This document shows, in pieces, positions 3,514 through 18,936 of a stretch of DNA of 64,000 nt. The stretch is from Pseudomonadota bacterium (GTDB lineage Bacteria > Bdellovibrionota_B > Oligoflexia > Oligoflexales > CAIYRB01). The position numbers and the translations under genes are program-made. The notes under the pieces are model-generated. The model worked only from the letters and a program-made list of their open reading frames with translations. It did no database searches and was not told the origin of the DNA. The stretch is from positions 98,131-162,130 of the forward strand of contig JANOTL010000138.1 in the NCBI GenBank assembly GCA_031416315.1, written 5' to 3'. Position 1 is the stretch's first letter. Each line of letters opens with the position of its first letter.

Positions 3514-5385
3514 ATGTCCAGCAATCTCCGCAACATTTGCATCATTGCCCACGTCGACCACGGCAAGACGACGCTCGTCGACTTCCTCTTGAAGCAAGCC
3601 GGGACCTTTCAAGCGCACGAAACCACGGCCGACCGCATGATGGACTCGGACTCCCAGGAGCGTGAGCGCGGCATCACGATCTCTGCGAAGAACGCCTCGT
3701 TCATGCTCGGCAACGTCAAGGTGAACGTCGTCGACACGCCGGGTCACGCCGACTTCGGCGGCGAGGTCGAGCGCATCATGGACATGGTCGACGGCGCCAT
3801 ATTGCTCGTCGACGCGGTCGAAGGGCCGCTCCCCCAGACCCGCTTCGTCCTCCAGAAGGCGATCGACAAAGGTCTGAAGATCGTACTCTGCATCAACAAG
3901 GTCGACCGCCCGGAAGCCGTCGGCAGCAATATGGTCTCCGAGTGCGTTGACAAGGCCTTCGACCTCTTCGTCGAGCTCGGCGCCTCCAACGAGCAGTGCG
4001 ACTTTCCGATCATCTACGCGTGCGCCCGCCACGGCTGGTGCACGGCGGACATCGACGCGATCCCGACCTATCTGGCCGGCGGGGGCGAGCGCAATCTCAA
4101 GGCGCTCTTCGCCACGATCCTCGCGATCCCGTCGCCGACGGCCAACGTCAACGCTGAGATGCAGCTCCTCGTCTCGAACATCGCGTATTCCGACTATCTC
4201 GGGAACCTCGCCTTGGGCCGGATCGCCGCCGGCAAGGTCCGCAAGGGCCAGGAGCTCCTACGCCACGGCGTGACCGAGACCGGCGCGCCCTCCGTGCAGA
4301 AGTTCTACGTCGCTCGCCTCCTTTCCTATGAAGGCATGAAGCAGGTCGAGGTCGAAGAGATCGGCGCGGGCGACATCGGCCTGATTGCCGGCTCTGACCA
4401 GCTGGAGATCGGCGACACCTTGAGCGGCCCGGCCGGCGTCGCGCTGAAGCGCATCAAGGTCGAAGAGCCGACCATGCGCATGATCTTCTCCATCAACACG
4501 ACGCCGAACTCCGGCCGCGAAGGCAAGGCGATCCAGTCGCGCGAGCTACGTCAGCGCCTGTACAACGAAACGCGCGCAAACGTCGCCCTGCGCCTCGAGG
4601 ACACCGAGCAGCCCGACCAGTTCTACCTCCTCGGCCGGGGCGAGCTCCAGTTCGGCATCCTGATCGAGAAGATGCGCCGCGAAGGCTTCGAGTTCATGGT
4701 CGGCCGCCCGAACGTGCTCTTGAAGAAGGAGGACGGCGTCCTGTTGGAGCCCGTCGAGCGCATGACCCTCGACCTTCCGGAGGCCTTCGCCGGCGAGGTC
4801 ACGCGCATGTACCAGCAGCGCAAGGGCACGCTTCTTTCGTATGAGGCGGCCTCCGCCGCCAGCACGGAAGAGGCTCGCGTCCGCCTCGTGATGGAGATCC
4901 CCACGCGCGGCATGCTCGGCACCAACTCCATGTACAAGACGGCGACGCGCGGCTCCGGCCTCATCAGCTCCGAGTCTGCCGGCTACAAGCCGCACTCCGG
5001 CCTGATCCAGCACCGTCTCACCGGCAGCTTGATCGCCGACCGCTCGGGCAAGACGACCGAATACGCGCTGGCCTCGGTGCAGGAGCGCGGCGTCTTGATG
5101 ATCGGCGAGGGCGTCGAGGTCTACGAGGGCATGATCATCGGCGAATGCGCGAAGGACAACGACCTCGTCGTCAACGCCATCCGCCCGAAGAAGCTCACCA
5201 ACATGCGCACGACCGGCTCGGACGGCATCACCAACCTCTACGGCGTCAAGCAGATGAGCCTGGAGAAGTGCATCGAGTGGATCGACGACGACGAGTGGAT
5301 CGAGGTCACGCCGAAATCGGTCCGCCTGCGCAAGAAGATCCTCGGGGCGCAGCAGCGCGGCTTGCGGAAGACCGAAAGAGACTAG
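3514..5385 (+). CDS. typA: Translational GTPase TypA/BipA
   Basis: [31 protein letters not shown] and NKVDRP G-motifs. Length ~623 aa and full-length collinearity with the EF-G-like fold. The start is trimmed to MSSNLRN. Confidence 0.95.
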
Positions 5386-6858: not shown

Positions 6859-9225
6859 TCAATAATCTCGGCGGTTGTACAGCGGCGCGTTCTTACTCAC
6901 CTCGAAATCCCCCGAGATCAGGTCCTTCCCGTTCGCGTGCAGACGCACCTTCCACTTCCCCTCTTCCATCGGGCCGGGGGATTTGTGGAAGACGTGCGCC
7001 GACGTCCAGTCCTTGTCGAACTTGAACGTGATCTCGCGCTTTTTGCCGGCGGGTGAGGTCCATTCGTAGAAGACCGTGGTGTCGTCCGGGAAAGCGACGC
7101 CGAAGGTCCACGCGACCATGTCCTCTTCCGGGTTGACCGTCTTGATCTCGTGGAAGTCCTTCTTCTTCCCGCCCTTGAGCGAGCCGAAGGCCAGCTTCTT
7201 CGGCCCGGGCGTCGAAAGGTCGTCGATCGCGAGCGCCACGCCGGCGGTCTTGCGGAAGCCCCGCAGCCGGTCGCCGTAGTCCTTGTTGATCTTCAGGTAC
7301 CACTGCTTCACCAGCGCCTGGTACTCGGTGATCTTCTCCAGGTTCTTGTCGGCCAGGTTTACGAGCTCGTGCGGGTCGTTCTCGAGGTCGAAGAGCTCGG
7401 GCTCGAACGGGGCGACCTTCTTGGCGATGAACTTCCACTTCCCGTCGCGGAGGCCCCAGCGCTCGGGCTGCGCGTTCTTGTGGAAGTAAGCGATGCGTTC
7501 TTTGTAATTGGGGTCAAAGAGATCCTGGCCCAAGAAGTCGCGCTTCGCCGGGGCCACGGTGTTGACCATGGTCGGCGCGATGTCGCCGACCGCGCCGAGG
7601 ATCGGCACCGTCGTCGGGCCGTCCTTCTTGCGCGGGTCGATGACGAGGAGGAAGTTCCGGATGTTCTCGTCGTAGATGTAGTTCTTGTGCGTCATGTTCG
7701 TCGGGTGCCACTCGCCGAAGGCTTCGCCGTGGTCGCCGCAGATGAAGATGATCGTGTTGTCGAGCTGGCCCTTCGCCTTCAGCTGGTCGACGAGCTGCTT
7801 GATCACGGAGTCCGTGAAGTTCAGCGCGTTGGTGTAGCGCGCTTTCCGATCGACCGGACCATCGCCGGTGCCGGCGGGGACGAGCGCAGGGTAGTCCTTC
7901 GGGATCGAATACGGATGGTGCGTGCCGTTGGTCATGTACTCGAGGAGGAAGGGGCCAGACTGCTTGCTGGCCCACTCGATCGCCTTGTCCATGACCCGGC
8001 GCTCGTCGACACCCCACGAGTTCAGCTTGTTCGACTTGCGGAAGTCGTCGGTGCCGTCCTCCGGCGTGAAGCTCTCGTCCCAAGGCAGGTTCTCGTAGAC
8101 GATGCCGAGGTTCTCGGTGTCCATGAACTGCGCCGAGAAGAGGCCCGTCTTGTAACCGGCCTTGCTGAGCTCGCCGGGGATCGTCGGGCCCATGAAGGAC
8201 TGCTTGTACTCTTCGTAGACCGAGCCCCAGGTGATCGTGTAGCCACCGGTCAGGATCGGCACGTGCGAGCGCACGGTGCCCGGAAAGTTGTCGTAGATGT
8301 GCGTGAAAATCGTCTGGTTCTGGCTCAAAGAGGCGAGAAAGGGCGTCGTCTTCGGGTCCAGCTTGCCGTCCGGCAAGATCTGCTTCGAGCCGACCGACTC
8401 GAGGACGAAGAACACGATGTTCGGCTTTTTCGGGTCGGTGCTCCAGCGCTTCGGCGTGTCGCGCCAGCCGGCCGGGAAGCCGTTGACGTTCGAGGGCAGG
8501 CCGAACTTCAGCGGATAAGGATCGTAATTGAGCGTCGCTGCTTGCGCCATGTTCGCTTGCGGCGCCGCGCGGAAGAGGCTAGCGGTCACGGAGATCAAAG
8601 GATGCGCGCTGATGTTGTAGAGGTCGCCACGCCCGATCAGCATGCCGCAGCAGATGATCGAATAGACCGCCGTATAGACGTAAGGAACGCGGCCGTTCTT
8701 GAAGTAGAACTTCGGCCAGGGCTCGCCCTTCTCCTGCCGGCGCAGGATCTGCGCGCCGACCAGGCAGGCAAGCCAAAGCGCGACGATCGCGTTCGCCGAG
8801 AAGGCGACGCCGAACTCGCCAACGATCGAGTCCTTCAGGGTCTCGAGGCTCGTCTCGGCGCCTTCGATGAAGCCGACCTGATAGTGGTCGAAGAAGATCG
8901 TGTAGAAGATGTTGTTGAAGAGCATGTAGGTGAGGACGAAGACGTAGACCGAGACCGCGAAGACGCGGCCGAAAACGGTCTTCGATGCGGCCACGAAGAG
9001 CGCGGTGACGAGCCCCGAGACGATCAGGTTCTGCACCTGGCTGAGCAAAATGCGCGAGAGGTCCGAGAACATCGGGTAGAACGCGGTGCGATGCCGCGCG
9101 AAGTAGATGCCGTAGTTTTCGTACTGCAGCGCGAGGTAGAAGAGGAACGTCGTGACGAAGACCAGCGTACCCGTGCGCCAGATGTTGGCTGGAGCACGGG
9201 GCGATTTGATTTTCTCGGACATCAT
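6859..9225 (-). CDS. LtaS/sulfatase (alkaline-phosphatase superfamily) membrane enzyme with C-terminal extension
   Basis: Five N-terminal TM helices. Extracytoplasmic sulfatase-like domain with NIVFFVLESVGSK and ICGDHGEAFGEWHP metal-site motifs. ~200-aa C-terminal extension. Stop overlaps the start region of the upstream rSAM gene (9222-9225). Confidence 0.8.
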   Translation of the reverse strand: MMSEKIKSPRAPANIWRTGTLVFVTTFLFYLALQYENYGIYFARHRTAFYPMFSDLSRILLSQVQNLIVSGLVTALFVAASKTVFGRVFAVSVYVFVLTYMLFNNIFYTIFFDHYQVGFIEGAETSLETLKDSIVGEFGVAFSANAIVALWLACLVGAQILRRQEKGEPWPKFYFKNGRVPYVYTAVYSIICCGMLIGRGDLYNISAHPLISVTASLFRAAPQANMAQAATLNYDPYPLKFGLPSNVNGFPAGWRDTPKRWSTDPKKPNIVFFVLESVGSKQILPDGKLDPKTTPFLASLSQNQTIFTHIYDNFPGTVRSHVPILTGGYTITWGSVYEEYKQSFMGPTIPGELSKAGYKTGLFSAQFMDTENLGIVYENLPWDESFTPEDGTDDFRKSNKLNSWGVDERRVMDKAIEWASKQSGPFLLEYMTNGTHHPYSIPKDYPALVPAGTGDGPVDRKARYTNALNFTDSVIKQLVDQLKAKGQLDNTIIFICGDHGEAFGEWHPTNMTHKNYIYDENIRNFLLVIDPRKKDGPTTVPILGAVGDIAPTMVNTVAPAKRDFLGQDLFDPNYKERIAYFHKNAQPERWGLRDGKWKFIAKKVAPFEPELFDLENDPHELVNLADKNLEKITEYQALVKQWYLKINKDYGDRLRGFRKTAGVALAIDDLSTPGPKKLAFGSLKGGKKKDFHEIKTVNPEEDMVAWTFGVAFPDDTTVFYEWTSPAGKKREITFKFDKDWTSAHVFHKSPGPMEEGKWKVRLHANGKDLISGDFEVSKNAPLYNRRDY

Positions 9226-10874
9226 GACCCCGTCGCGTCGACCTGAGCCGGTACGGCCCTCTCGAGCTGGATTTCCTGCAGCTTGGCTGTCTTATCTAGA
9301 ATATAGCGCCGTTGGGTCGAGAAATGGAGGTACATCCCCATCAAACGCATCGCCAGGTCGAAGTGGTTCGGCCCGGCAAAAAGTGCCTTGAAGAAGTTCC
9401 GCCAGTAAAGCGGGCGCCATTCGGGATTTTTGCTCATCTTCCAAGAGATGATGGCCAACCCCATGATGTCCCGCTTCAGCTCCCAGAGGCGGGGGAGGCG
9501 CTTCTGCTTGAGCTTGACGAGGAGGCACTGGCGCAGCACGCGGTCGAAATAGACCTTCGGCGAGTAGACCGTGTCCACGACGTTGCGGAACTCGGCCAGG
9601 ATCTCGTAGCGATTTCGCGTGGTGATGAAGTTGAGGCCGGCGACCGTTTGGTCGGCCACCTCGAAGGTCTTGAGGTCGGCGCCGTGCGCCGTCGAGGCGG
9701 AGGTGTCGTTGGCGTCGATCAGCTTCGAGTCGAAGCCCATGAGCCGACCCTCTTTCTTCAGGCGGCGGGTGAGCTGCGTGTTGGGCAAGGCCACGAGGAG
9801 TCCGGTCATCGCGATCGTGACGGCCCCGTCCTCGATGCACTTGATGATCGCCACGTCCATGTTCTTCTTCTCGCCGTCGAAGCCCATGATGAAGCCGGCG
9901 GTCGGCATGAGCCCGCAGGCCATCATCCGGTGCAGGCGGTCCTGGATCGGGCGCACGGTGTTCTGCGACTTCTGGGTCTTGAGCAGGAGCTCCGGGTCCG
10001 GCGTCTCGATGCCGGTGAAGACGATCCGGAAGCCCGCGTTCGCCATCTCCTTCATCATCGGCTCGTCGTCGGCCAGGTTCATCGACGCCTCGGTGGCGAA
10101 GAAGAAGGGGCGGAAGCGTTTACGGTTCCACTTGGTCAGGGCCGGCAGGATGTTCTGGCGGATGTAGCGCTTGTTGCCGATGAAATTGTCGTCGACGATG
10201 TCGACCGAGCCCGTGTAGCCCGTCTTCTTGATCGCCTCGAGCTCCTTGATCACCTGCTCCGGCGATTTGATCCGCGGCTTTCTGCCGAAAAGCTCGATGA
10301 TGTCGCAAAATTCGCAGTTGAAGGGACAGCCGCGCGAGATCTGCAGCGCCATCTGGTTGTAGTCGTTCTTGTCGAGCAGGTCGTAGCGCGGGACCGGCGT
10401 CGTCGTCATGTCGGGCTTATCGGCGGAGCGGAAGAGGCCCTTCGCCTCGCCCTTGCGCCAGCTTTCGAGCCACATCGGGATGGTGATCTCGCCTTCGTCG
10501 AGGACGCGCGCGTCGGCCGGCGTGTATACGTCGGCCTGGCTCGACGGGTCGGAGCCGCCGACGACCACGAATTTGCCGCGTTTTTTCGCCTCGTCGATGA
10601 CTCTCAACGTGTTCATCTGCTGCGGCAGCATGCCGCCGGTCGCGACCAGCTCGGCCCAGGCCCAGTCGGCGTCGCTCACCTGGCGGCAGTTCATGTCGAC
10701 GAGGCGAAACTCCCAGTGCTGCGGGAAGATCGCGGCGACCGTGATCAGGCCGAGGGGCATGTTCGGCGTCTTCGCGCCGATCGCCTCGACCGATTCCTTG
10801 TAGTTCCAAAAGCTCCCGATCGGGAACTCGGGCTGGATGAGGAGGCAGCGGATGGGCTGGTCGGGTGATTTCAT
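9222..10874 (-). CDS. B12-binding (class B) radical SAM protein with DUF4070-like C-terminus
   Basis: Start trimmed to MKSPDQPIRCLLIQPEF (ATG 10872-10874, AGGAAA RBS). N-terminal Rossmann-like cobalamin-binding region. Radical SAM cluster motif CPFNCEFC. Long C-terminal domain. Confidence 0.85.
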   Translation of the reverse strand: MKSPDQPIRCLLIQPEFPIGSFWNYKESVEAIGAKTPNMPLGLITVAAIFPQHWEFRLVDMNCRQVSDADWAWAELVATGGMLPQQMNTLRVIDEAKKRGKFVVVGGSDPSSQADVYTPADARVLDEGEITIPMWLESWRKGEAKGLFRSADKPDMTTTPVPRYDLLDKNDYNQMALQISRGCPFNCEFCDIIELFGRKPRIKSPEQVIKELEAIKKTGYTGSVDIVDDNFIGNKRYIRQNILPALTKWNRKRFRPFFFATEASMNLADDEPMMKEMANAGFRIVFTGIETPDPELLLKTQKSQNTVRPIQDRLHRMMACGLMPTAGFIMGFDGEKKNMDVAIIKCIEDGAVTIAMTGLLVALPNTQLTRRLKKEGRLMGFDSKLIDANDTSASTAHGADLKTFEVADQTVAGLNFITTRNRYEILAEFRNVVDTVYSPKVYFDRVLRQCLLVKLKQKRLPRLWELKRDIMGLAIISWKMSKNPEWRPLYWRNFFKALFAGPNHFDLAMRLMGMYLHFSTQRRYILDKTAKLQEIQLERAVPAQVDATGS

Positions 10875-10962
10875 GTCGTGTTTTCCTCGCTTACGCCTAT
10901 CGGACGCGAGGCCTTCCCGGCTTGAGGCGGCCAGATCCGCCGCGCTTTGGTAGAATGGGCAA

Positions 10963-11736
10963 ATGCAGAGAAAACAAATCATCATGCTGGGCGCGAGCAA
11001 CCTGACCCGCGGCATCTCGACCGTGGTCTCCTGGCTCCGTGGCAACCTCGGCGGCCCTTTCGACCTGTACGTCGCCTTTGGCTACGGGCGCTCTTTCGGG
11101 ATCAAGAGCGGCGTCTTCGGCCGCGACCTCCCGAGCATCAAGGACTGCGGCATCTGGGAGGCGCTCGCCGCTCGACCGCCCCACGAGCGCGACGCTCCGA
11201 CTTACGCTTTGATCACCGACATCGGCAACGACCTTCTGTATCAAGTCCCCCCGGATGAGATCGCGCGCTGGCTCGAATACGCCCTGCGCAAATTTCGCGA
11301 GCTAGGCGCCAAGATCTCGATCGTGCAAATCCCGAAGGCCAACGTCGAGAAAGTCACGAGACTGCAGTTCTTCCTCCTGAACCGCATATTCTTCCCCGGC
11401 CGCAACATGCAGCCCGACGACATGCGCGCCCGCGCCATGCGCCTCGCGGCGCACGTCGAGCGCCTCGCCCGCGAATACGGCGCGACGCTCGTCGACCAGA
11501 AGCCCGAGTGGTACGGCTTCGACCCGATCCATTATAAGATCTGGTGGTGGCCGCGGGCTTGGGCCTCGGTGCTGGGGTCCTGGCAAGAGACCGCGCTCGT
11601 TCCCGTCGCCGCCTTCCGCCAGTGGCTCTACCTGCGCAGCCGGGGTCCGGCCCAGCGCTGGTTCTTCGGGCGGGAGCAGCGCTATGCGCAGCCGCACGGC
11701 CGCCTGAGCGACGGCTCGACGGTGCACGTTTACTGA
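10963..11736 (+). CDS. Hypothetical protein, SGNH/GDSL-hydrolase-like
   Basis: Divergent from the rSAM gene. N-terminal IIMLGASNLTRG (GDS-like block) and DIGNDLL (GNDL-like block). No signal peptide. Confidence 0.4.
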   Translation: MQRKQIIMLGASNLTRGISTVVSWLRGNLGGPFDLYVAFGYGRSFGIKSGVFGRDLPSIKDCGIWEALAARPPHERDAPTYALITDIGNDLLYQVPPDEIARWLEYALRKFRELGAKISIVQIPKANVEKVTRLQFFLLNRIFFPGRNMQPDDMRARAMRLAAHVERLAREYGATLVDQKPEWYGFDPIHYKIWWWPRAWASVLGSWQETALVPVAAFRQWLYLRSRGPAQRWFFGREQRYAQPHGRLSDGSTVHVY

Positions 11737-11750
11737 GCTGGAAGCCCACG

Positions 11751-13094
11751 ATGCAATCCACGCACGCCGCCTGGCCCGTTTCCGCGTTCGAGCACTACAT
11801 GCTCGCAGACGACCGGCCCGATTTCGCGATGACGTGCTTCGTCCGCTGCCGCTTCGCCGGCCACTTTGATCGTCTTCGCTTCGAAAGCGCGTGGCGCGAG
11901 GCCGTCGTGCGGCATCCCATGACGCGAGCCTTGGTGCGCGGCCCGCGGTGGGGCCGCCGTCGCGACCTAGTCTGGTATCTCGACCCGAACGCCGCCTTTC
12001 CGGCAGTGCGTTGGCGCTCCGCGAATCCTGGAGTCCGTCCCGGCAGCTTTCCGTCGGACCCGCGGCGTGGAACGGGCTTCTTGCTTTGGCTCGACGAGCT
12101 ACCCGAAGAGACCGAGCTTTTGTTCCAGTTCCACCATGCTGTCTGCGACGGGGCGGGAGTCTTCGGTTTTCTGGAGGACCTCTTGCTCGCGTACGATCAC
12201 GCCGGCGCCGGCGGCGGCATGACGCCGCGCGTCTTGGATCCGACGCGCTTCGAGCGCCGAGACACGATCGGCCTCGACGCGGCCGAGCTGAAGGCGCGGT
12301 TGCCGCTGGACGTAGAGGAGACGCGCAAGTTTTTTCGCGTCTTGCCCGCGCCGGTCCGGCGCCCCAAGCACCGCCCCGCGGGGCTCGATAGAGCCCCGGA
12401 CCTTGCGGCGATCGTGCGGCGCGTGCTGTCAGAAGAAGACCTTCGCGCGCTTTCGGCCGCCGGCAAGCGCCGCGGCGCCACGTTGAACGACGCGCTTCTT
12501 CGCGACTTCTTCCTGGCGCTCGACGACTGGAACGGCGCGCAGGCGCCCGGCGCGCCGCGGCCTTCGTTGCGGCTCGCAATGCCTATGGACCTGCGTCTTC
12601 CCGACGACTCGGCGATGAGCGCCGCGAACCTGGTCAGCATGGTGTTTCTGACGCGGAGCGCGCGCGAGCTCGCGGACCGCGACGTCCTTTTGGCCTCGAT
12701 CGCCGCGGAGACGGCCCGCGCCAAGCGTCATCGCATGGGGATCACGCTGATCCGGGTCGTGCGCGCCCTCGGCGCCTGGTTCGCCGCGCTCGTGCTGTTT
12801 TTTCGCTTGCCGCTGTGCAGCGCGAGCGCCGTGCTCACCAATTTGGGTCGGCCCTTCTCGGGCTCCGGCCTTCTCGACGCCGAGGGACGAGTGCGCTCGG
12901 GGTCGACTAGGCTGCTGTGGCTGGAATCGATCCCGCCCCTGCGGCGACGCACGCGGGTCGCTGTCTCCGTCAACACCTACGGCGGCAAGCTGCGCCTCAC
13001 GTTGCATTACGATTCGACGGTCTTCGGCGCGGAGCATGCGGAGGAGATGCTGGAGCGCTACCTCGTTCGCCTGCGGCAGACGGCGCGGATCTGA
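11751..13094 (+). CDS. Condensation-domain / WS-DGAT (PapA5)-like acyltransferase
   Basis: HHAVCDGAG matches the HHxxxDG catalytic motif of the condensation/WS-DGAT superfamily. 447 aa. Starts 15 nt after the previous gene. Confidence 0.65.
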   Translation: MQSTHAAWPVSAFEHYMLADDRPDFAMTCFVRCRFAGHFDRLRFESAWREAVVRHPMTRALVRGPRWGRRRDLVWYLDPNAAFPAVRWRSANPGVRPGSFPSDPRRGTGFLLWLDELPEETELLFQFHHAVCDGAGVFGFLEDLLLAYDHAGAGGGMTPRVLDPTRFERRDTIGLDAAELKARLPLDVEETRKFFRVLPAPVRRPKHRPAGLDRAPDLAAIVRRVLSEEDLRALSAAGKRRGATLNDALLRDFFLALDDWNGAQAPGAPRPSLRLAMPMDLRLPDDSAMSAANLVSMVFLTRSARELADRDVLLASIAAETARAKRHRMGITLIRVVRALGAWFAALVLFFRLPLCSASAVLTNLGRPFSGSGLLDAEGRVRSGSTRLLWLESIPPLRRRTRVAVSVNTYGGKLRLTLHYDSTVFGAEHAEEMLERYLVRLRQTARI

Positions 13095-13119
13095 GCCGGA
13101 AGCGATCGGTGCGATCGCT

Positions 13120-13677
13120 TCACTTGCAGTCGCGCCACGCGAGGGCGAGCTTGGCCGCCTTCACCATCGCGACGCGGCTCGTCGCGGCGGGCGTGCCTTT
13201 CGCAAGGGCGCCCAGGCCGAAGACCAAGGTCGTGGCTTTGCCGCACCCGCCCCAGCGCGGCTCGAGGCGGACCGTTTCTTCCTGAGCGTTGCGCTTCACG
13301 CCGTCGCCATACGCGACGACGCCGGATGAGGTCTCCGCTGCGCCCTGCAGATGCATGCGAGCCGTAACCTCCGCGCTCGCGCCGTTCGCCACGTCGGCGT
13401 CGACGGAAAAGGTGAGCGCGTTGCCGGCGAGCTGCTTTCCAGGCTCGGCGGAGATCGTCACCGCCGCCTCGCAGTTGGACCTCATGAGGCCGCGCGCCTT
13501 TGGGCCGCCGGCCGCCGCCTCGAACGCGGGCATCTCGACGACCAGCGCGTCGGGCTCGAGCCGGGTGACGGCGGTCTGGGCCGCTTTGCAGCCGCTGCCG
13601 GCGAGCGAGGCTTGGGTGACTTTCGGCTCCGCGTGAGCGGAGGTCGCGACGAGGATCAAAGGCAAGAGATGACGCAT
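13120..13677 (-). CDS. Secreted paralog A of a DUF4360-like family
   Basis: Start trimmed to MRHLLPLILVATSAHA (signal peptide). GSGC motif and conserved Cys pattern shared with the three downstream paralogs. Most diverged member. Confidence 0.55.
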   Translation of the reverse strand: MRHLLPLILVATSAHAEPKVTQASLAGSGCKAAQTAVTRLEPDALVVEMPAFEAAAGGPKARGLMRSNCEAAVTISAEPGKQLAGNALTFSVDADVANGASAEVTARMHLQGAAETSSGVVAYGDGVKRNAQEETVRLEPRWGGCGKATTLVFGLGALAKGTPAATSRVAMVKAAKLALAWRDCK

Positions 13678-13766
13678 GGGAGGCCCTCCGAAAAGAGGAC
13701 CCCCCGCGACCCAAGGGCCGCGGGGGGCAAGACGAGTCTCGTCCATTTACCCCTGTCTTCCGTCGA

Positions 13767-14384
13767 TTAGCAACGGCGCCAGCGGACGCCGTAGACGTGC
13801 GTGAGCTCGCCGTCGATCGAGTCCGTGGTCATGAGGCCGCGGGCGAAGCGGTTTGAAGAGGTCAGGCGGACCTGAGTGTTGATGTTGAGCGCACGAGTCG
13901 CGCCGCAGGGCGACCACACGACGGCTGCGAGGCCGAGGCTGTCGCGGATTTGGTAGTCTTGCTGCGTCGGGCCGCGGAAGTTGGAGCGCAAGGTCGCCGT
14001 CGCAGCCGAACCTTGGAAGTAGTATGCCGACTGTTGCGTGCCGGTGACGCCGGCTTCGAGGCTCGCGTATCCGCGGTAGTCGACGTCGAGGATGGAGTAG
14101 CTCCAGCCTTGCGGGAAATGCAGGTCGACGGCGATCTGGCAGTTCTTGCGGGACTGGTTCAGCTGGACGCCGGGGCCGACTTCGGCGATGTAGCTGTCGA
14201 AGAGCAGCGTGAAGGCCTTGAGATCTTGCGCGACGTTTTGCGAGACGGTCCCGGCGGGGCAGCCCGAGCCGGCGTACGAGATGCTGCGGATGCGGACGTA
14301 CTCAGGGCTCTGCGCGAAAGCGGACGAGCTGAGCATCGCGATCGCGAGTCCGGCTCCGGCTTTCAAAAGGTTCGAGAATTTCAT
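13767..14384 (-). CDS. Secreted paralog B of the DUF4360-like family
   Basis: Signal peptide. VRIRSISYAGSGCPAGTVSQNVA...KNCQ...WSPCG. About 80% identical to paralog D (15682..16306). Confidence 0.75.
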   Translation of the reverse strand: MKFSNLLKAGAGLAIAMLSSSAFAQSPEYVRIRSISYAGSGCPAGTVSQNVAQDLKAFTLLFDSYIAEVGPGVQLNQSRKNCQIAVDLHFPQGWSYSILDVDYRGYASLEAGVTGTQQSAYYFQGSAATATLRSNFRGPTQQDYQIRDSLGLAAVVWSPCGATRALNINTQVRLTSSNRFARGLMTTDSIDGELTHVYGVRWRRC

Positions 14385-14557
14385 TTGTGACGATCCTCCT
14401 CAGAATGTTTGTGTTCCGCATTTGCCAGAACGATGCGTACTGTGCAGTTCACATGCCACCGCGAAAAAACGGGGAAAAAGCGTGCGAACTCGCGCGACCG
14501 CGCCATTGCGCGTGAGCGCTCGCGGTAACAAAAAACGCTGAGACGGAAAAAGATGGA

Positions 14558-14627
14558 CCGTTCTGTTGTTCTGCGAGCGCTCTTCGCCAAGTCACAGAAC
14601 GCTTTGTTCTGCGAGTATATTGCGTTC
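14558..14627. promoter_or_regulatory. Cluster of CAGAAC/GTTCTG half-sites including the palindrome AGTCACAGAAC-gcttt-GTTCTG, in the divergent promoter between paralogs B and C
   Basis: GTTCTG at 14560, 14569 and 14606; CAGAAC at 14595; direct repeat TTGTTCTGCGAG x2 (14566-14577, 14604-14615). Lies 40-110 nt upstream of the paralog C start. Confidence 0.5.
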
Positions 14628-14669
14628 TAAACAATTGTTTCGTATCTTCAGCCCGAGGGGGAGACGAAG

Positions 14670-15311
14670 ATGCACGAGCAAAGCACTTGGAAAGAGCAAT
14701 TTTTCGCCGCGATCGCCCTGGCCGCCGCGGCCGCTATCGCCCAGGCCGCGCGCGCCGACGAAAGTCGGGAGCCTGAGTTCACCGACGAGCCGGCATGGGT
14801 CTCGGTCCTTAGCGTCGTCAAGGCCGGCAGCGGCTGCCCCGCGAGCTACGGCGACGCGGTCGTCTACGGCGAGTCGCTCCTCATCATTGATTATGATCGC
14901 ATGACCGCGCGGTACGGCGCGGGCCACTCCCTGCGCGAATCGCGCAAGACTTGCCAGCTCTCGATCGATCTCGACTACCCGAGCGGCTGGACTTACGCGG
15001 TCGAGGCCGTCTACGCCGAGACCTCGCTGCGCCTCCCGGCCGGCACGACCGGTAAGGCGGTCTTCTCCGCCTACTTCCAAGGGACGAACGAGACGGCGCG
15101 CGCCGAGCGCCCCTACTACGGCCCAGCTGCGAGCTACGACGCGATGGATCTTTACTTCGACCGAGCCGTTTTCGCGCCGTGCGGCCAGTCCCGCCCGTTG
15201 AACGTCAAGGCCGAGGTCCAAACGAGCGTAAGCCGCTACGGCGGCGGGGCGAGCCGCGTCGGCCTCGACGGCCCCGCGTACCTCCTTCTTCGCTGGCAGC
15301 GGTGCGAGTGA
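14670..15311 (+). CDS. Secreted paralog C of the DUF4360-like family
   Basis: Signal peptide. GSGCPASYG ... KTCQLSIDLDYPSGWTY ... APCG. Same architecture as A/B/D. Confidence 0.7.
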   Translation: MHEQSTWKEQFFAAIALAAAAAIAQAARADESREPEFTDEPAWVSVLSVVKAGSGCPASYGDAVVYGESLLIIDYDRMTARYGAGHSLRESRKTCQLSIDLDYPSGWTYAVEAVYAETSLRLPAGTTGKAVFSAYFQGTNETARAERPYYGPAASYDAMDLYFDRAVFAPCGQSRPLNVKAEVQTSVSRYGGGASRVGLDGPAYLLLRWQRCE

Positions 15312-15445
15312 GCCGGGTTCGTAAGGCCCCGCTTCGGGGACCCGTGCCGCGCGCGGGACCCCCATTCGGACAAAAGTATCCCACCTGGAGCGCCGCTCTG
15401 GCGGGGCATCTCAGCGAATCTCAGTGAAACTTAGCGAGTCTTAGT

Positions 15446-15495
15446 CCCGATCGGTCGCACAAGTAAACCGCGCGACCGGTCGGGATTCTGTCATT
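15446..15495 (+). terminator. Stem-loop after paralog C (probable terminator)
   Basis: 13-bp stem CCCGATCGGTCGC / GCGACCGGTCGGG (one G-U), 13-nt loop, followed by a T-rich ATTCTGTCATTT. Confidence 0.4.
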
Positions 15496-15681
15496 TGGAC
15501 GTACGGGCTCCCCGAGCAGCTTGTCGTTGCAATCCCCGAAACCCTTACTCCGCGGCGTGTTCGAAACATCGCCCCGTCAATTTCGCGCCCTTCGCTCACC
15601 TCTGGCACATCGTTTGCTCAAGGGAGCGTGTTCGCAACGCAGCGAGCTTCAACTTCTTCATCTCTCTTGGAGGACTCCGCA

Positions 15682-16306
15682 GATGCTTTCCGCTCTCAAG
15701 AACCTGGTCAAATTCGGCGCTCCCGTGGCTGTCATGGCGTTCGCTTCCGTCGCCAACGCGCAAGCGCCTTCGCATGTCCGCATCCGCTCGATCTCGTACG
15801 CCGGCTCGGGCTGCCCCGCCGGAACCGTCTCGCAGAACGTCGCGCCGGACCTGAAGGCCTTCACGCTGCTCTTCGACAGCTACATCGCCGAAGTCGGCCC
15901 CGGCATCCCGCTGAACCAGTCCCGCAAGAACTGCCAAGTCGCCGTCGACCTCGACTTCCCGCAAGGCTGGTCCTACTCCCTGATGACCGTCGACTACCGC
16001 GGCTACGCGGCCCTCGACGCCGGCGTCCGCGGCGAGCAGAGCGCGGCGTACTACTTCCAAGGCCAGTCGGCCACCGCGCGTCTCGGCACGACCTTCAGCG
16101 GCCCGACCGCCCGCGACTACCAGATCCGCGACACCCTCGGGATCACGGCTCTCGTCTGGTCGCCGTGCGGCCTTTCCCGCGCGCTCAACATGAACACCCA
16201 AGTTCGCTTGTCGGCCCCGGCCGGCCGCCGCGGCATGCTGACCACCGACTCGATCGACGGTCAGATCACCCACGTCTACGGCATCCAGTGGCAGCGCTGC
16301 CGCTAA
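15682..16306 (+). CDS. Secreted paralog D of the DUF4360-like family
   Basis: ATG 15682 with GGAGG 8 nt upstream. Signal peptide MLSALKNLVKFGAPVAVMAFASVANA. Near-identical blocks with paralog B. Confidence 0.75.
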
Positions 16307-16357
16307 TCTTAGCGGTCCCGCTCGTACCGGTTACCTAGAAGCGCCTGTGTGTCTTCC

Positions 16358-16395
16358 GAGCTCCGCGGCGCCCGCCGCGGAGCTCTTCGTTTCCC
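16358..16395 (+). terminator. Rho-independent terminator after paralog D
   Basis: 13-bp perfect GC-rich stem GAGCTCCGCGGCG/CGCCGCGGAGCTC with a 3-nt loop, followed by TTCGTTTCC. Confidence 0.55.
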
Positions 16396-16438
16396 GCCAT
16401 AAATATAATCCAGTTTATAAACAAACTCTCAGCCAAAG

Positions 16439-16461
16439 AGTCACAGAACACCACGTTCTTT
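16439..16461. promoter_or_regulatory. Second copy of the AGTCACAGAAC-N5-GTTCT palindromic motif, ~60 nt upstream of the TIGR02147 regulator gene
   Basis: GAGTCACAGAACaccacGTTCTT matches 16 of 16 core positions of the 14592-14611 site. Preceded by an AT-rich stretch (16400-16430). Confidence 0.5.
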
Positions 16462-16518
16462 GAGCTTGTGCGCGGCGCGATAATCCGCTAGATTCTGTTT
16501 CGGAGGCGCGAAGTCGGA

Positions 16519-17325
16519 ATGCAAGATCTAGCGATCAACGACTACAAGACCATCCTCAAGGAGGAGCTCGCGTCTCGTTGTCGGCAGAACCCGCGCTACT
16601 CGCTCAGGGCTTTCGCCCGCGACCTGAAGCTCGCTCCCTCGCGGCTTTCCGAGGTGCTTTCTGGGAAGCAAGGCTTGTCGCGCCCAGCCGCCGAGCGCAT
16701 CGCCAAGTCCCTCGGCTACGCGGCGGGCGACATCGAGCGCTTCTGCGACCTAGTCGAGAGCCTGCACGCCCGCTCGAAGAAAAACCGCGATTCGGCTCGC
16801 CTGCGCTTGAAGAAGGTCGGCGGCGATTCCAGCGAGATTCAACTGCAAGCCGACACCGTCAAGCTCATCGCCGACTGGTATCATTTTGCGATTCTCGAGC
16901 TCACCAACCTCGACGGGTTCCGCTCGGAAAGTAAGTGGATCGCGAAGCGGCTCGGAATTTCCGAGTTCGAGGCGCAACTTGCGCTCGACCGCTTGCAGCG
17001 CCTGAACCTCATCACCCGCAAGGGCGACGAGATAAAACTGAACCACCAACATGGTTTTCATGCTTCCAACGTCTCCACCGAGGCGATCAACACCTTCCTC
17101 GGCCAGCTGATGGCGAAGGCGCGCGATGCGCTGTATTTCCAGCAGGTAGAACGCTCGGAGATCAACGCGGAGATCGTCGCGATCGACCGCGCGAAGATCC
17201 CGGAAGCGAAGAAAATGATTCGTGACTTCAGGCATAAATTTTGCAGAAAACTCGGTGAAGATGAGGTCCGCGACGGCCTCTACTGCATCGCGATCCAGTT
17301 CTTCGAGCTGACCGAGAGGGGATAG
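16519..17325 (+). CDS. TIGR02147-family HTH transcriptional regulator (Fibrobacter/Bdellovibrio-type)
   Basis: 268 aa. N-terminal YSLRAFARDLKLAPSRLSEVLSGKQGLS HTH block typical of the TIGR02147 family. Stop is 4 nt before the next gene start. Confidence 0.65.
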   Translation: MQDLAINDYKTILKEELASRCRQNPRYSLRAFARDLKLAPSRLSEVLSGKQGLSRPAAERIAKSLGYAAGDIERFCDLVESLHARSKKNRDSARLRLKKVGGDSSEIQLQADTVKLIADWYHFAILELTNLDGFRSESKWIAKRLGISEFEAQLALDRLQRLNLITRKGDEIKLNHQHGFHASNVSTEAINTFLGQLMAKARDALYFQQVERSEINAEIVAIDRAKIPEAKKMIRDFRHKFCRKLGEDEVRDGLYCIAIQFFELTERG

Positions 17326-17328
17326 ACG

Positions 17329-18936
17329 ATGTTCAAGGCTTCTCAAAAAATCGCGACGACCATGGCCTTGTGGTCGGCGTTCGCAACAGCGGCCTACGGC
17401 GGCTGGGGCATGGGCCGCGGCGGCGACTCCCTGCGACTCGCGTTCGCGCAAGCGAAGCAGCACGCCTCGCACATCGTCCTACGGCTGCGCCCGGAAGCGC
17501 TCCCGGCCAGCGTCCCCGCGGACGTGCGCGCCTGGCTCACCGAGCAGACCAACCGCGAGCAACTCGCGGCCGACATCTCCGCCTCGGAGCACGTCTGGAC
17601 GGAAGACGAGAAGCCGACCTGCGCCTGGACGCAGACGACGCGCGACGCCGCGATCGACCTCTCCTACGTTACCTGTCGCAAGGCGATGGATTTCGCCAGC
17701 GGCAACCGGCCGAGCGACCACACCTCGATCCCGAGCTTCGAGGCCGTCGGCCGCCTCTTGATCCACGAGTCCGTCCACCATTTCGGCATCACCGACGAGC
17801 AGTTTGCGGACTCGGTCGCGATCGCCGTCTACGACGCTTGGAGCGCCGGCGCCAACGAGTGGCTGCGCATCCCGAGCGCGCCCGAAGCGAAGACCAAGCA
17901 CGCGGCCGTCTGGGCCGACAATCAGATGATCGTTTTCGGCGGGCTCAACGCCTCGGGACGCGCCACCAATACCGGCTTCTCCTTCGACCCGAAGACCTCG
18001 ACCTGGACGGCACTGCCGAACGCCGGCGCTCCGGCGCGCGATCTGCCGCAGATGGTGTGGGCGGAAGATAAGCTGATCGTCTGGGGCGGCTACGTCGCGA
18101 AGACCGTCTCCGGCACGCAGACGTTCGTCTGGCAGAACAACGGCGCGGTCTATGCGAACGGACGCTGGACCAATCTTGCGCCGCCCGCAGGCCAACCGGC
18201 GGAGCTCGCCGACGCGGCGGCTTACATCGACCGCGGCGTGCAGACGATGGTTTGGACCGGCACCGAGGCCGTGATCTTCGGCGGCGCGCCGGTGAGCGGC
18301 AAGCTCATGGGCGGAGCCTACAACCCGACGACCGGCGCCTGGCGCCAAGTGAAGACGCAGGGCGCGCCCGACGCCGTCAGCGGCCACACTGCCGTGTGGG
18401 CGGGCGACAAGATGATCGTCTTCGGCGGCCGCGACTCGGCTCGCAACATCTCGAACCGTGGCGCCGCTTGGAGCGCTTCTGCGAACGCCTGGACGACGCT
18501 CTCGACGACCGGCGCCCCCTTGGCCCGCGACGCGCACACCGCGGTGTGGACCGGCAGCAAGATGCTCGTCTTCGGCGGTCAGACCTCGACCTCTGCAGGA
18601 TCGAGCGGCAACGGCGGCGTCTATGATCCGAGCAACGGTAGTTGGCTCTCGTTCACGACCGAAGCCGCCCAAGGCCGCTTCGAGCATGCCTCGGTCTGGA
18701 CCGGCTCGGAGATGCTCGTCTACGGCGGCAAGTCGGCCCGCTTTATCTTCTCACTCGGCGCGATGGCCGCCTACAGCCCGGCCGCCAAGGCCTGGCGCGT
18801 GAGCGAGGGCGCGGCGCAGGCACCGGCCTCTCGGATGCACCCGACCGCGGTTTGGACGGGCTCGTCCGTCATCGTCTTCGGCGGCACCCTCGACGGCGGT
18901 GCAGCCACCGCAACCGGCGGCGTGTTCTTCCCGTAA
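17329..18936 (+). CDS. Secreted Kelch-repeat protein with N-terminal HExxH-containing domain
   Basis: Signal peptide. N-terminal domain with LIHESVHHFG (HExxH). At least six WxGxxMIVFGG Kelch-like repeats. Confidence 0.75.
   Translation: MFKASQKIATTMALWSAFATAAYGGWGMGRGGDSLRLAFAQAKQHASHIVLRLRPEALPASVPADVRAWLTEQTNREQLAADISASEHVWTEDEKPTCAWTQTTRDAAIDLSYVTCRKAMDFASGNRPSDHTSIPSFEAVGRLLIHESVHHFGITDEQFADSVAIAVYDAWSAGANEWLRIPSAPEAKTKHAAVWADNQMIVFGGLNASGRATNTGFSFDPKTSTWTALPNAGAPARDLPQMVWAEDKLIVWGGYVAKTVSGTQTFVWQNNGAVYANGRWTNLAPPAGQPAELADAAAYIDRGVQTMVWTGTEAVIFGGAPVSGKLMGGAYNPTTGAWRQVKTQGAPDAVSGHTAVWAGDKMIVFGGRDSARNISNRGAAWSASANAWTTLSTTGAPLARDAHTAVWTGSKMLVFGGQTSTSAGSSGNGGVYDPSNGSWLSFTTEAAQGRFEHASVWTGSEMLVYGGKSARFIFSLGAMAAYSPAAKAWRVSEGAAQAPASRMHPTAVWTGSSVIVFGGTLDGGAATATGGVFFP

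Follow-up and report, generated by a model that had tools for sequence, protein, structure and literature searches.

A protein of a predatory bacterium that is close to the DUF4360 family is Bd1399 of Bdellovibrio bacteriovorus, whose structure (PDB 8OKH; CASP15 target T1194) is presented in the accessible part of the published account as an elongated beta-sandwich locked by two conserved disulfides, one N-terminal and one joining a late loop to the C-terminus (PMC10792529). The same part of that account calls Bd1399 DUF4360-related, gives Bd2850 and Bd2851 as canonical members of the family, mentions no active site, and singles out Bd1399 as the sole protein both upregulated in predation and needed for effective predation, a link described for Bd1399 itself. 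When assayed in Nicotiana benthamiana, two secreted fungal DUF4360 proteins, VdSCP27 of Verticillium dahliae and PnSsp1 of Parastagonospora nodorum, induce cell death or necrosis (PMC7170778; bioRxiv 10.64898/2026.09.14.751338). DUF4360 proteins are abundant secreted proteins of predatory bacteria and plant-associated fungi, and in the family literature we found no mention of control by sigma-54 or by regulators of the TIGR02147 type. Here, we describe a cluster of four DUF4360 genes (A to D) and the TIGR02147/DUF4423 regulator gene beside it, in a 64,000-nucleotide (nt) stretch of contig JANOTL010000138.1 from a Pseudomonadota bacterium (assembly GCA_031416315.1), hereafter the window.

Four intact paralogous open reading frames (ORFs) occupy positions 13120–16306 of the window, A and B on the minus strand and C and D on the plus strand (Table 1). 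The model that we favour, with a probability of about 0.55, is one of old, exported binding paralogs controlled by sigma-54 and by the adjacent TIGR02147 regulator, in which B and D have undergone gene conversion. In a Pfam profile search with PF14273 (DUF4360; gathering cut-off 27 bits, model length 178 positions), each of the four proteins scored above the cut-off and was matched from model position 2 or 3 through to position 178. The original prediction had described A–D as DUF4360-like, secreted-type proteins with a shared GSGC block and four conserved cysteines, two of them (A and C) diverged, and this description stands: the GSGC motif and four cysteines are invariant in a four-way alignment, the cysteines (numbered C42, C82, C160 and C205 in B) also stay unchanged throughout a 47-sequence alignment, all four proteins appear to carry Sec-type leaders, and A and C are merely 21–32% identical to B and D, with A lacking the FPQGW and YYFQG motifs. 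The proteins align well beyond their leaders and matched no enzyme family in Pfam or NCBIfam; no NCBIfam model matched A–D at all, and PADLOC and PHROGs yielded no defence-system or phage family for them and only a weak generic helix-turn-helix match for the regulator. A–D are ordinary DUF4360 members, and the cluster brings no new kind of protein. They share with Bd2850 and Bd2851 the full-length profile, a length of ~200 amino acids (aa), a predicted signal peptide, four conserved cysteines and adjacency of paralogs, Bd2850 and Bd2851 being neighbours by locus number in the accessible part of the Bd1399 account (PMC10792529). In contrast to that pair, the window holds four copies in two divergent pairs, two of which (A and C) come from sparse branches of the family, and a conversion tract between B and D.

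The likeness of B and D had been taken in the original prediction, with an estimated identity of ~80%, as a sign of recent duplication, which would here be an inverted duplication within this lineage and would leave the array still expanding. The similarity in DNA is real, as positions 13863–14316 and 15757–16210 form an inverted repeat of 454 nt at 80% identity, and B and D are mutual best matches within the window, both of which speak for that reading. Yet the two proteins are only 71% identical, and each has relatives in other genomes that are just as close: after P0002, a protein from another sample at 89% identity, B is about equally near to D (71%) and to other-genome proteins (66–70%), and the nearest relatives of D likewise stand at ~70%. 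Nor do B and D pair as sisters in a neighbour-joining tree built from 121 sequences, where the smallest clade with both of them comprised 64 sequences and a clade of four or fewer holding both was recovered in merely 5% of 200 bootstraps. A sister organism, whose orthologs are denoted by a prime, is represented by two short contigs of a single public run (DRR493918); contig L140 carries B' and then the start of A', and contig L139 carries C' and then the start of D', in the same order as in the window. The sister organism already has the A-B and C-D arrangements and, therefore, the paralogs predate that split.

When the codons of B, D, B' and D' were aligned, a mosaic appeared instead. Across codons 41–95, to which the high identity is confined, B is 92–94% identical to D and 80–83% identical to its own ortholog B'; synonymous divergence (dS) between B and D is 0.23 within this tract and 0.62–0.73 outside it, and between B and B' it is 0.66 within and 0.08–0.43 outside. 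Sites at which B agrees with D and not B' stand to sites at which B agrees with B' and not D as 28:7 in the tract and as 23:106 outside it (Fisher p = 1e-11). Because the tract had been picked after viewing the data, a maximum chi-square scan was also run, in which the best segment held 24 of 27 informative sites, a value that none of 1000 permutations reached. D has retained the ancestral sequence and is therefore the donor, with B the recipient. Recent gene conversion across the inverted pair, with ~165 nt of D copied over the matching part of B, accounts for the likeness of the two genes in DNA; a recent duplication is, on the combined evidence of tree, identities, sister gene order, dS outside the tract and mosaic pattern, highly improbable. 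Gene conversion between inverted paralogs can thus mislead the dating of duplications by DNA identity alone.

Relative to the sister organism, purifying selection acts on all four genes: the ratio of nonsynonymous to synonymous divergence (dN/dS) is ~0.2 in B, 0.23 in C and 0.15 in D, and the first 43 codons of A, the part compared, likewise give 0.15. These values bear on whether A, and perhaps C, could be decaying or non-functional copies, leaving the B/D-type pair as the sole functional unit. A has a low profile score, lacks the two motifs named above, sits behind a terminator-like hairpin and has few relatives (48, all distant, in a library of 1.84 billion proteins), and C has a single close homolog (P0124, 89% identity). 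Against decay, both genes are intact with all four cysteines, both are kept in the sister organism at the low dN/dS just given, and A has full-length relatives (165–216 aa, 33–42% identity). We consider decay unlikely; A and C are sparse, divergent branches of DUF4360.

The starts of two genes required adjustment. The ORF of A reaches 13746, and we place the real start at M24 (13677) because the hairpin sits inside the longer ORF; a GGAGG ribosome-binding site precedes M24, the start is kept in sister contig L140, and the 185-aa form is P0125 in the protein collection. For D, the start at 15683 is preferred over a longer TTG-initiated ORF from 15521, as the 207-aa form is P0003 in the NCBI-derived set and the start is conserved in the ortholog on L139. 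Read by eye, the leaders of A–D each have an n-region, a hydrophobic h-region and an AxA-type cleavage motif, with predicted cleavage at SAHA|EP in A, AFA|QS in B, AQA|AR in C and ANA|QA in D; a lipobox cysteine was not present in any of the four leaders.

An AlphaFold2 model of B, built from the 47-sequence alignment, has a mean predicted local distance difference test score of 83 and consists of an all-beta domain from residue 31, preceded by a low-confidence N-terminal helix (residues 4–17). Foldseek searches of the PDB with this model returned Bd1399 first (E 8e-9), on which the model superposes clearly better than on other beta-sandwiches, followed by carbohydrate-binding modules (CBM61, CBM16, CBM6, CBM11) and concanavalin A-type folds. 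The link to Bd1399 is structural only: identity is 9–13%, and neither a PDB sequence search with B nor a profile search with the 47-sequence alignment returned anything meaningful. The cysteine layout of B (42/82 and 160/205, the last at the C-terminus) is nevertheless like that of Bd1399, which in the accessible account shares the elongated beta-sandwich with an N-terminal and a C-terminus-reaching disulfide, and which is a secreted protein of a predatory bacterium; models of Bd2850 and Bd2851 have two disulfides as well. Each of A–D has the fold of an elongated jelly-roll beta-sandwich of ~180 residues, and would be delivered by its Sec leader to the periplasm or the outside of the cell and, by analogy with Bd1399, be locked by two disulfides pairing the first cysteine with the second and the third with the C-terminal one.

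What such proteins would do is suggested by what the family conserves. In the 47-sequence alignment, invariant positions are restricted to Gly, Ala, Cys, one Trp and one Arg, R79 being the sole invariant polar residue besides the four cysteines. This single polar residue, together with binding modules as structural neighbours, favours a non-catalytic binding role at the cell exterior as the most likely function of A–D, perhaps lectin- or CBM-like and directed at the envelope or at a polymer of prey or host, with the paralogs having possibly diverged in ligand or partner. Jelly-roll folds include glycoside hydrolases of families GH11, GH12 and GH16 and polysaccharide lyases of family PL7, and DUF4360 proteins could instead be enzymes, for example glycanases or lyases that cut wall polymers of prey or host. 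The conservation of many Asp, Arg and Asn residues within the B/D-type subfamily, the secreted hydrolase-like proteins encoded nearby and the plant necrosis induced by fungal members are all compatible with catalysis. Across the divergent paralogs, by contrast, no acidic pair is conserved, the best structural matches are non-catalytic modules, Pfam and NCBIfam gave no enzyme-family match, and the accessible account of Bd1399 mentions no active site, so that an enzymatic role appears unlikely and binding remains our preferred reading. The resemblance to CBMs and lectins extends to a generic beta-sandwich topology, small size and a predicted extracellular location; it comes without any sequence relationship, and CBMs are usually joined to enzymes, whereas A–D stand alone. 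The fungal proteins VdSCP27 and PnSsp1 share with A–D the Pfam domain, a similar size, four cysteines and secretion, which in A–D is predicted, and on the fungal side are expressed during interaction with another organism, but they are eukaryotic, and the plant-cell assays are theirs alone and not of the bacterial proteins.

A word-indexed protein search found 1753 relatives with E <= 1e-5, and a scan of one genome per species located 58 DUF4360 loci (L-numbers below). Most of these lie in metagenome-assembled genomes (MAGs) assigned to the Bdellovibrionota (Pseudobdellovibrionaceae, Bdellovibrionales, Oligoflexales) or labelled 'Pseudomonadota' or 'Deltaproteobacteria', with more distant copies in Thiotrichaceae, Lentzea and others. 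The GC content of the window is 64.6%, and that of its closest relatives, for the most part Bdellovibrionota MAGs with some labelled 'Pseudomonadota bacterium', 56–70%. The search for similar arrays in related genomes was rewarded, as two to five copies, in tandem or divergent, occur in ~22 of the 58 loci, and arrays are therefore typical of the family. The richest array seen is that of L003 (5852–11886), a Pseudobdellovibrionaceae MAG, with five DUF4360 copies, a TIGR02147 regulator inside the cluster and two sigma-54 promoters, which makes it a natural counterpart with which to compare the present cluster.

Upstream of B and of D lie elements of sigma-54 type, with a -24 GG and a -12 GC at canonical spacing (TGGCAC-N5-TTGCW). 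Aligned upstream regions of D-type genes, taken from four genomes, share a conserved TGG-N9-TTGC block, and the position of the D promoter is conserved in L002, L014 and L060. The pattern TGGYAY-N5-YTGCW is matched no more than twice in the window, where 0.12 matches would be expected, and these are the two upstream of B and D. Over 760 kb (the 58 loci and the window) it has 41 matches, 32 of which are upstream of DUF4360 genes (within 300 nt on the same strand); 32 of 85 DUF4360 genes have such a match, among them almost all those of B/D type in the Bdellovibrionota loci. B. bacteriovorus has an RpoN-like sigma factor, bd0843 (PMC3464611). If B and D do use sigma-54, as these motifs suggest, then expression of B/D-type DUF4360 genes should depend on RpoN and on a specific, searchable activator, since sigma-54 promoters require an enhancer-binding ATPase. 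A candidate site for that activator is a run of four tandem CTYAGYGARW units upstream of the D promoter, which is partly conserved in L002 (1053–1077), L014 (about 300–345) and L060. The related ATCTYAG is 9–15-fold enriched upstream of sigma-54 matches; TCTYAG(YG) is not enriched over the whole window (5 matches vs 8.8 expected). We suggest, weakly, that the repeats may be the activator-binding site of the D promoter.

A second DNA signal of the cluster is a palindrome, CACAGAAC-N5-GTTCTG, found in the B–C intergenic region and again upstream of the adjacent TIGR02147/DUF4423 regulator gene. The perfect core upstream of C (14596–14610) and the core upstream of the regulator gene (16445–16459) both lie 60–74 nt before their genes, the former within the extended form TCACAGAAC-N5-GTTCTGCGA, and the regulator-gene site is also present in L002, L014 and L059. 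A third, imperfect copy lies directly downstream of the -12 element of B, and therefore over the expected transcription start, and is 100% conserved in L140. CAGAAC-N5-GTTCT with at most one mismatch occurs eight times in the window against 0.73 expected, six of the eight being these three sites in the intergenic regions of the cluster, counted on both strands. In other genomes, CACAGAAC-N5-GTTCTG(Y)G stands upstream of DUF4360 or regulator genes in L002, L014, L023, L025, L028 and L038; L014, L025 and L028 belong to one MAG and L002 and L038 to another, so that one regulator could serve several dispersed DUF4360 genes per genome. We found no published description of either the sigma-54 promoters or the palindromes of DUF4360 loci, and both signals, which are supported by sequence statistics from many independent loci, are new. 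As separate observations, two direct GTTCTG half-sites lie 8 nt apart at 14560–14573 (plus strand) between B and C, in a block that is 100% conserved in L139, and five further exact GAAC-N5-GTTC cores, without the CACA/TGTG extension, occur in the window at 3690, 8410, 50279, 56141 and 56171.

The likely reader of the palindromes is the product of the regulator gene, which has an XRE-type helix-turn-helix at its N-terminus and passes both curated cut-offs of the TIGR02147/DUF4423 family, a family paralogous in Fibrobacter and Bdellovibrio for which a search of the literature by family name found a single table entry. When neighbours within 5 kb were clustered over the 58 loci and the window, no gene was conserved beside DUF4360 across lineages except this regulator (5 loci), and all five family members in these loci and the window lie within ~200 nt of a DUF4360 gene. 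The regulators of L003 and L034, only 37% identical, have an intergenic GGAAC-N5-GTTCC variant instead. The order D-type gene, regulator, Kelch gene is kept in L002 and L014, and the pair of D-type gene and regulator in L059 and L060. In a reverse test, 80 independent metagenome loci were chosen by regulator (L059–L138; 570 kb), and the palindrome proved to be concentrated upstream of the regulator genes: GAAC-N5-GTTC has 33 sites in the 570 kb, 24 of which fall within the 24.5 kb upstream of regulators, and replacing the 5-nt spacer by one of 1–4 or 6–11 left 0–2 upstream matches. When every locus was pooled with the window, the site stood upstream of 27 of 86 regulator genes, mostly 53–93 nt before the start of the profile match. 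Symmetric flanks are frequent (e.g. CATTGAAC..GTTCAATG and CGTAGAAC..GTTCTACG), and the inverted repeat recurs in the regulator's own promoter region among both orthologs and paralogs. Which base precedes GAAC goes with the amino acid that follows the conserved 'GK' in the second helix, KQGLS occurring with AGAAC and KR[RK]xS with GGAAC: all 10 ACAGAAC sites belong to KQGLS proteins, and 7 of 8 GGAAC sites to proteins with Arg after 'GK'. A core operator of GAACA-N3-TGTTC and a link to DUF4360, the latter in this orthogroup and one other, set the present proposal apart from what is described for the family, and would give this uncharacterised family a recognisable putative operator that marks several DUF4360 genes in the lineage.

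Upstream of sigma-54 promoters, activators often bind palindromic sites, and another factor, such as the sigma-54 activator, might bind GAAC-N5-GTTC with the TIGR02147 protein a mere bystander; the palindromes of L002 and L014, ~290–320 nt upstream of a sigma-54 promoter, would suit this view. The site is, however, enriched at a tight distance upstream of TIGR02147 genes of which none (0/86) has a sigma-54 motif upstream, which argues against an activator site, and at B the palindrome lies downstream of the -12 element, not upstream. Its flanking bases also co-vary with recognition-helix residues of the regulator. Binding by another factor is, on this sequence evidence, an unlikely alternative to binding by the TIGR02147 protein, of which a dimer may occupy the palindromes over the B start and in front of both C and its own gene, most simply as an autoregulating repressor.

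In the transcription units that we envisage, B would be read from its sigma-54 promoter, with the operator over its start site, and followed by a hairpin (100% conserved in L140) and then by A with its own ribosome-binding site; A, behind a terminator hairpin, is therefore proposed to be expressed at a lower level by read-through. C probably has its own promoter just downstream of the perfect operator, and its transcript may end at a hairpin that we read from the sequence and that the terminator scan did not call. The sequence TATATT after the operator was considered as the C promoter and dropped, as it is not conserved in L139. D would have its own sigma-54 promoter and end at the terminator that follows it. 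The Kelch gene starts 4 nt after the stop codon of the regulator gene, and the two therefore probably form an operon, which would lie behind the third operator. Between the window and the sister contigs, intergenic regions are at least as conserved as coding regions, with operators, sigma-54 elements and hairpin identical. Rfam returned no RNA family, either for the cluster (E-value mode) or for the whole window (gathering mode), so that the conserved blocks between the genes do not correspond to known RNA elements.

Several observations weigh against this model as a whole. The signal peptides of A–D were judged by eye. The signature of enhancer-binding activators (GAFTGA, Walker A) is absent from the window, so that the activator would have to be encoded elsewhere, and the proposed enhancer repeats accompany only 7 of 41 promoters. 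A consensus scan found no sigma-70 promoter anywhere in 12900–17400, C included. The palindrome is carried by 12 of 83 DUF4360 genes (<=400 nt upstream), with only a spacer of 5 enriched. In the reverse test, DUF4360 neighboured the regulator in 2 of 80 loci, both with the closest orthologs (60–63% identity), and the link is therefore specific to a lineage or orthogroup and not to either family; a family-wide role of DUF4423 proteins as dedicated DUF4360 regulators was dropped on this count. Relatedness confounds the pairing of helix residue with operator base, to which there are also exceptions.

Extending the model beyond the window, we offer a more tentative proposal, which we hold at somewhat less than even odds: in a GC-rich, apparently Bdellovibrionota-related lineage, dispersed DUF4360 genes may form one regulon of secreted envelope-binding effectors, switched on through sigma-54 and an activator and gated by a dedicated TIGR02147 protein, and TIGR02147 proteins may generally be autoregulating repressors on GAACA-N3-TGTTC, whose outer bases would differ between paralogs and be read by the residue after 'GK'. 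If this holds, TIGR02147 proteins would for the first time be assigned a DNA target and a regulon, and it would offer a first handle on when DUF4360 proteins are deployed.

Table 1. Features of the DUF4360 cluster and its surroundings, in window coordinates.
Feature	Position	Strand	Details
Gene A	13120..13677	-	Divergent DUF4360 paralog, 185 aa; PF14273 51.6 bits, full length; P0125
Terminator-like hairpin	13699..13728	-	13-pair stem, 11 GC pairs, T-rich tail; between B stop and A ribosome-binding site
Gene B	13767..14384	-	DUF4360 protein, 205 aa; PF14273 233.4 bits
Gene-conversion tract in B, recipient	14106..14270	-	Codons 41–95; dS mosaic, Fisher, maximum chi-square
Imperfect palindrome	14427..14441		AGAAC-N5-GTACT on plus strand, one mismatch; directly downstream of B -12 element
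Sigma-54-type promoter of B	14443..14458	-	TGGCAT-N5-CTGCA; TGGCATGTGAACTGCA at 14458-14443(-)
Perfect palindromic operator (putative)	14592..14614		TCACAGAAC-GCTTT-GTTCTGCGA; 56–78 nt upstream of C ATG
Gene C	14670..15311	+	Divergent DUF4360 paralog, 213 aa; PF14273 99.5 bits
Four tandem 10-nt units CTYAGYGARW	15410..15449	+	Candidate enhancer (activator-binding) site, ~150–190 nt upstream of D promoter
Possible terminator of C	15445..15485	+	14-bp inverted repeat TCCCGATCGGTCGC / GCGACCGGTCGGGA, then T-rich stretch; read from sequence
Sigma-54-type promoter of D	15603..15618	+	TGGCAC-ATCGT-TTGCT; TGGCACATCGTTTGCT; canonical -24/-12
Gene D	15683..16306	+	DUF4360 protein, 207 aa; PF14273 221.2 bits; P0003
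Gene-conversion tract in D, donor	15803..15967	+	Codons 41–95; D–D' dS 0.05 within tract
Intrinsic terminator after D	16358..16385	+	12-pair stem, 10 GC pairs, T-rich tail
Palindromic operator (putative)	16441..16463		TCACAGAAC-ACCAC-GTTCTTTGA; 56–78 nt upstream of regulator gene
TIGR02147/DUF4423 helix-turn-helix regulator	16519..17325	+	268 aa; DUF4423 126.6 bits (cut-off 30) and HTH_31; TIGR02147 97.9 bits (cut-off 50)
Kelch beta-propeller protein	17329..18936	+	N-terminal leader, HExxH; Pfam Kelch families

The surroundings of the cluster had suggested a secreted effector module with the nearby Kelch and astacin-type genes. The Kelch part of this idea is retained, given the order of D-type gene, regulator and Kelch gene in two related genomes, but the astacin-like gene adjoins DUF4360 in none of the other loci, and the same is true of the GDSL lipase and sulfatase genes and of the condensation-like gene nearby in the window. 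On the far side of gene A, positions 9222–13094 hold three ORFs, of which one is radical-SAM-like and has a counterpart at 60% identity in L021, an Oligoflexales locus, one resembles GDSL lipases and one weakly matches a condensation domain; none of them is conserved beside DUF4360 in other loci. The Kelch protein contains a region of ~180 aa, outside any Pfam model, with a zinc-protease-like HESVHH (HExxH) motif. The ORF at 18642/19002–20222 (plus strand) encodes a zincin/astacin-like metalloprotease core followed by a C-terminal match to the Pfam VHL beta domain (E 1e-10), a domain that is unexpected for a bacterium.

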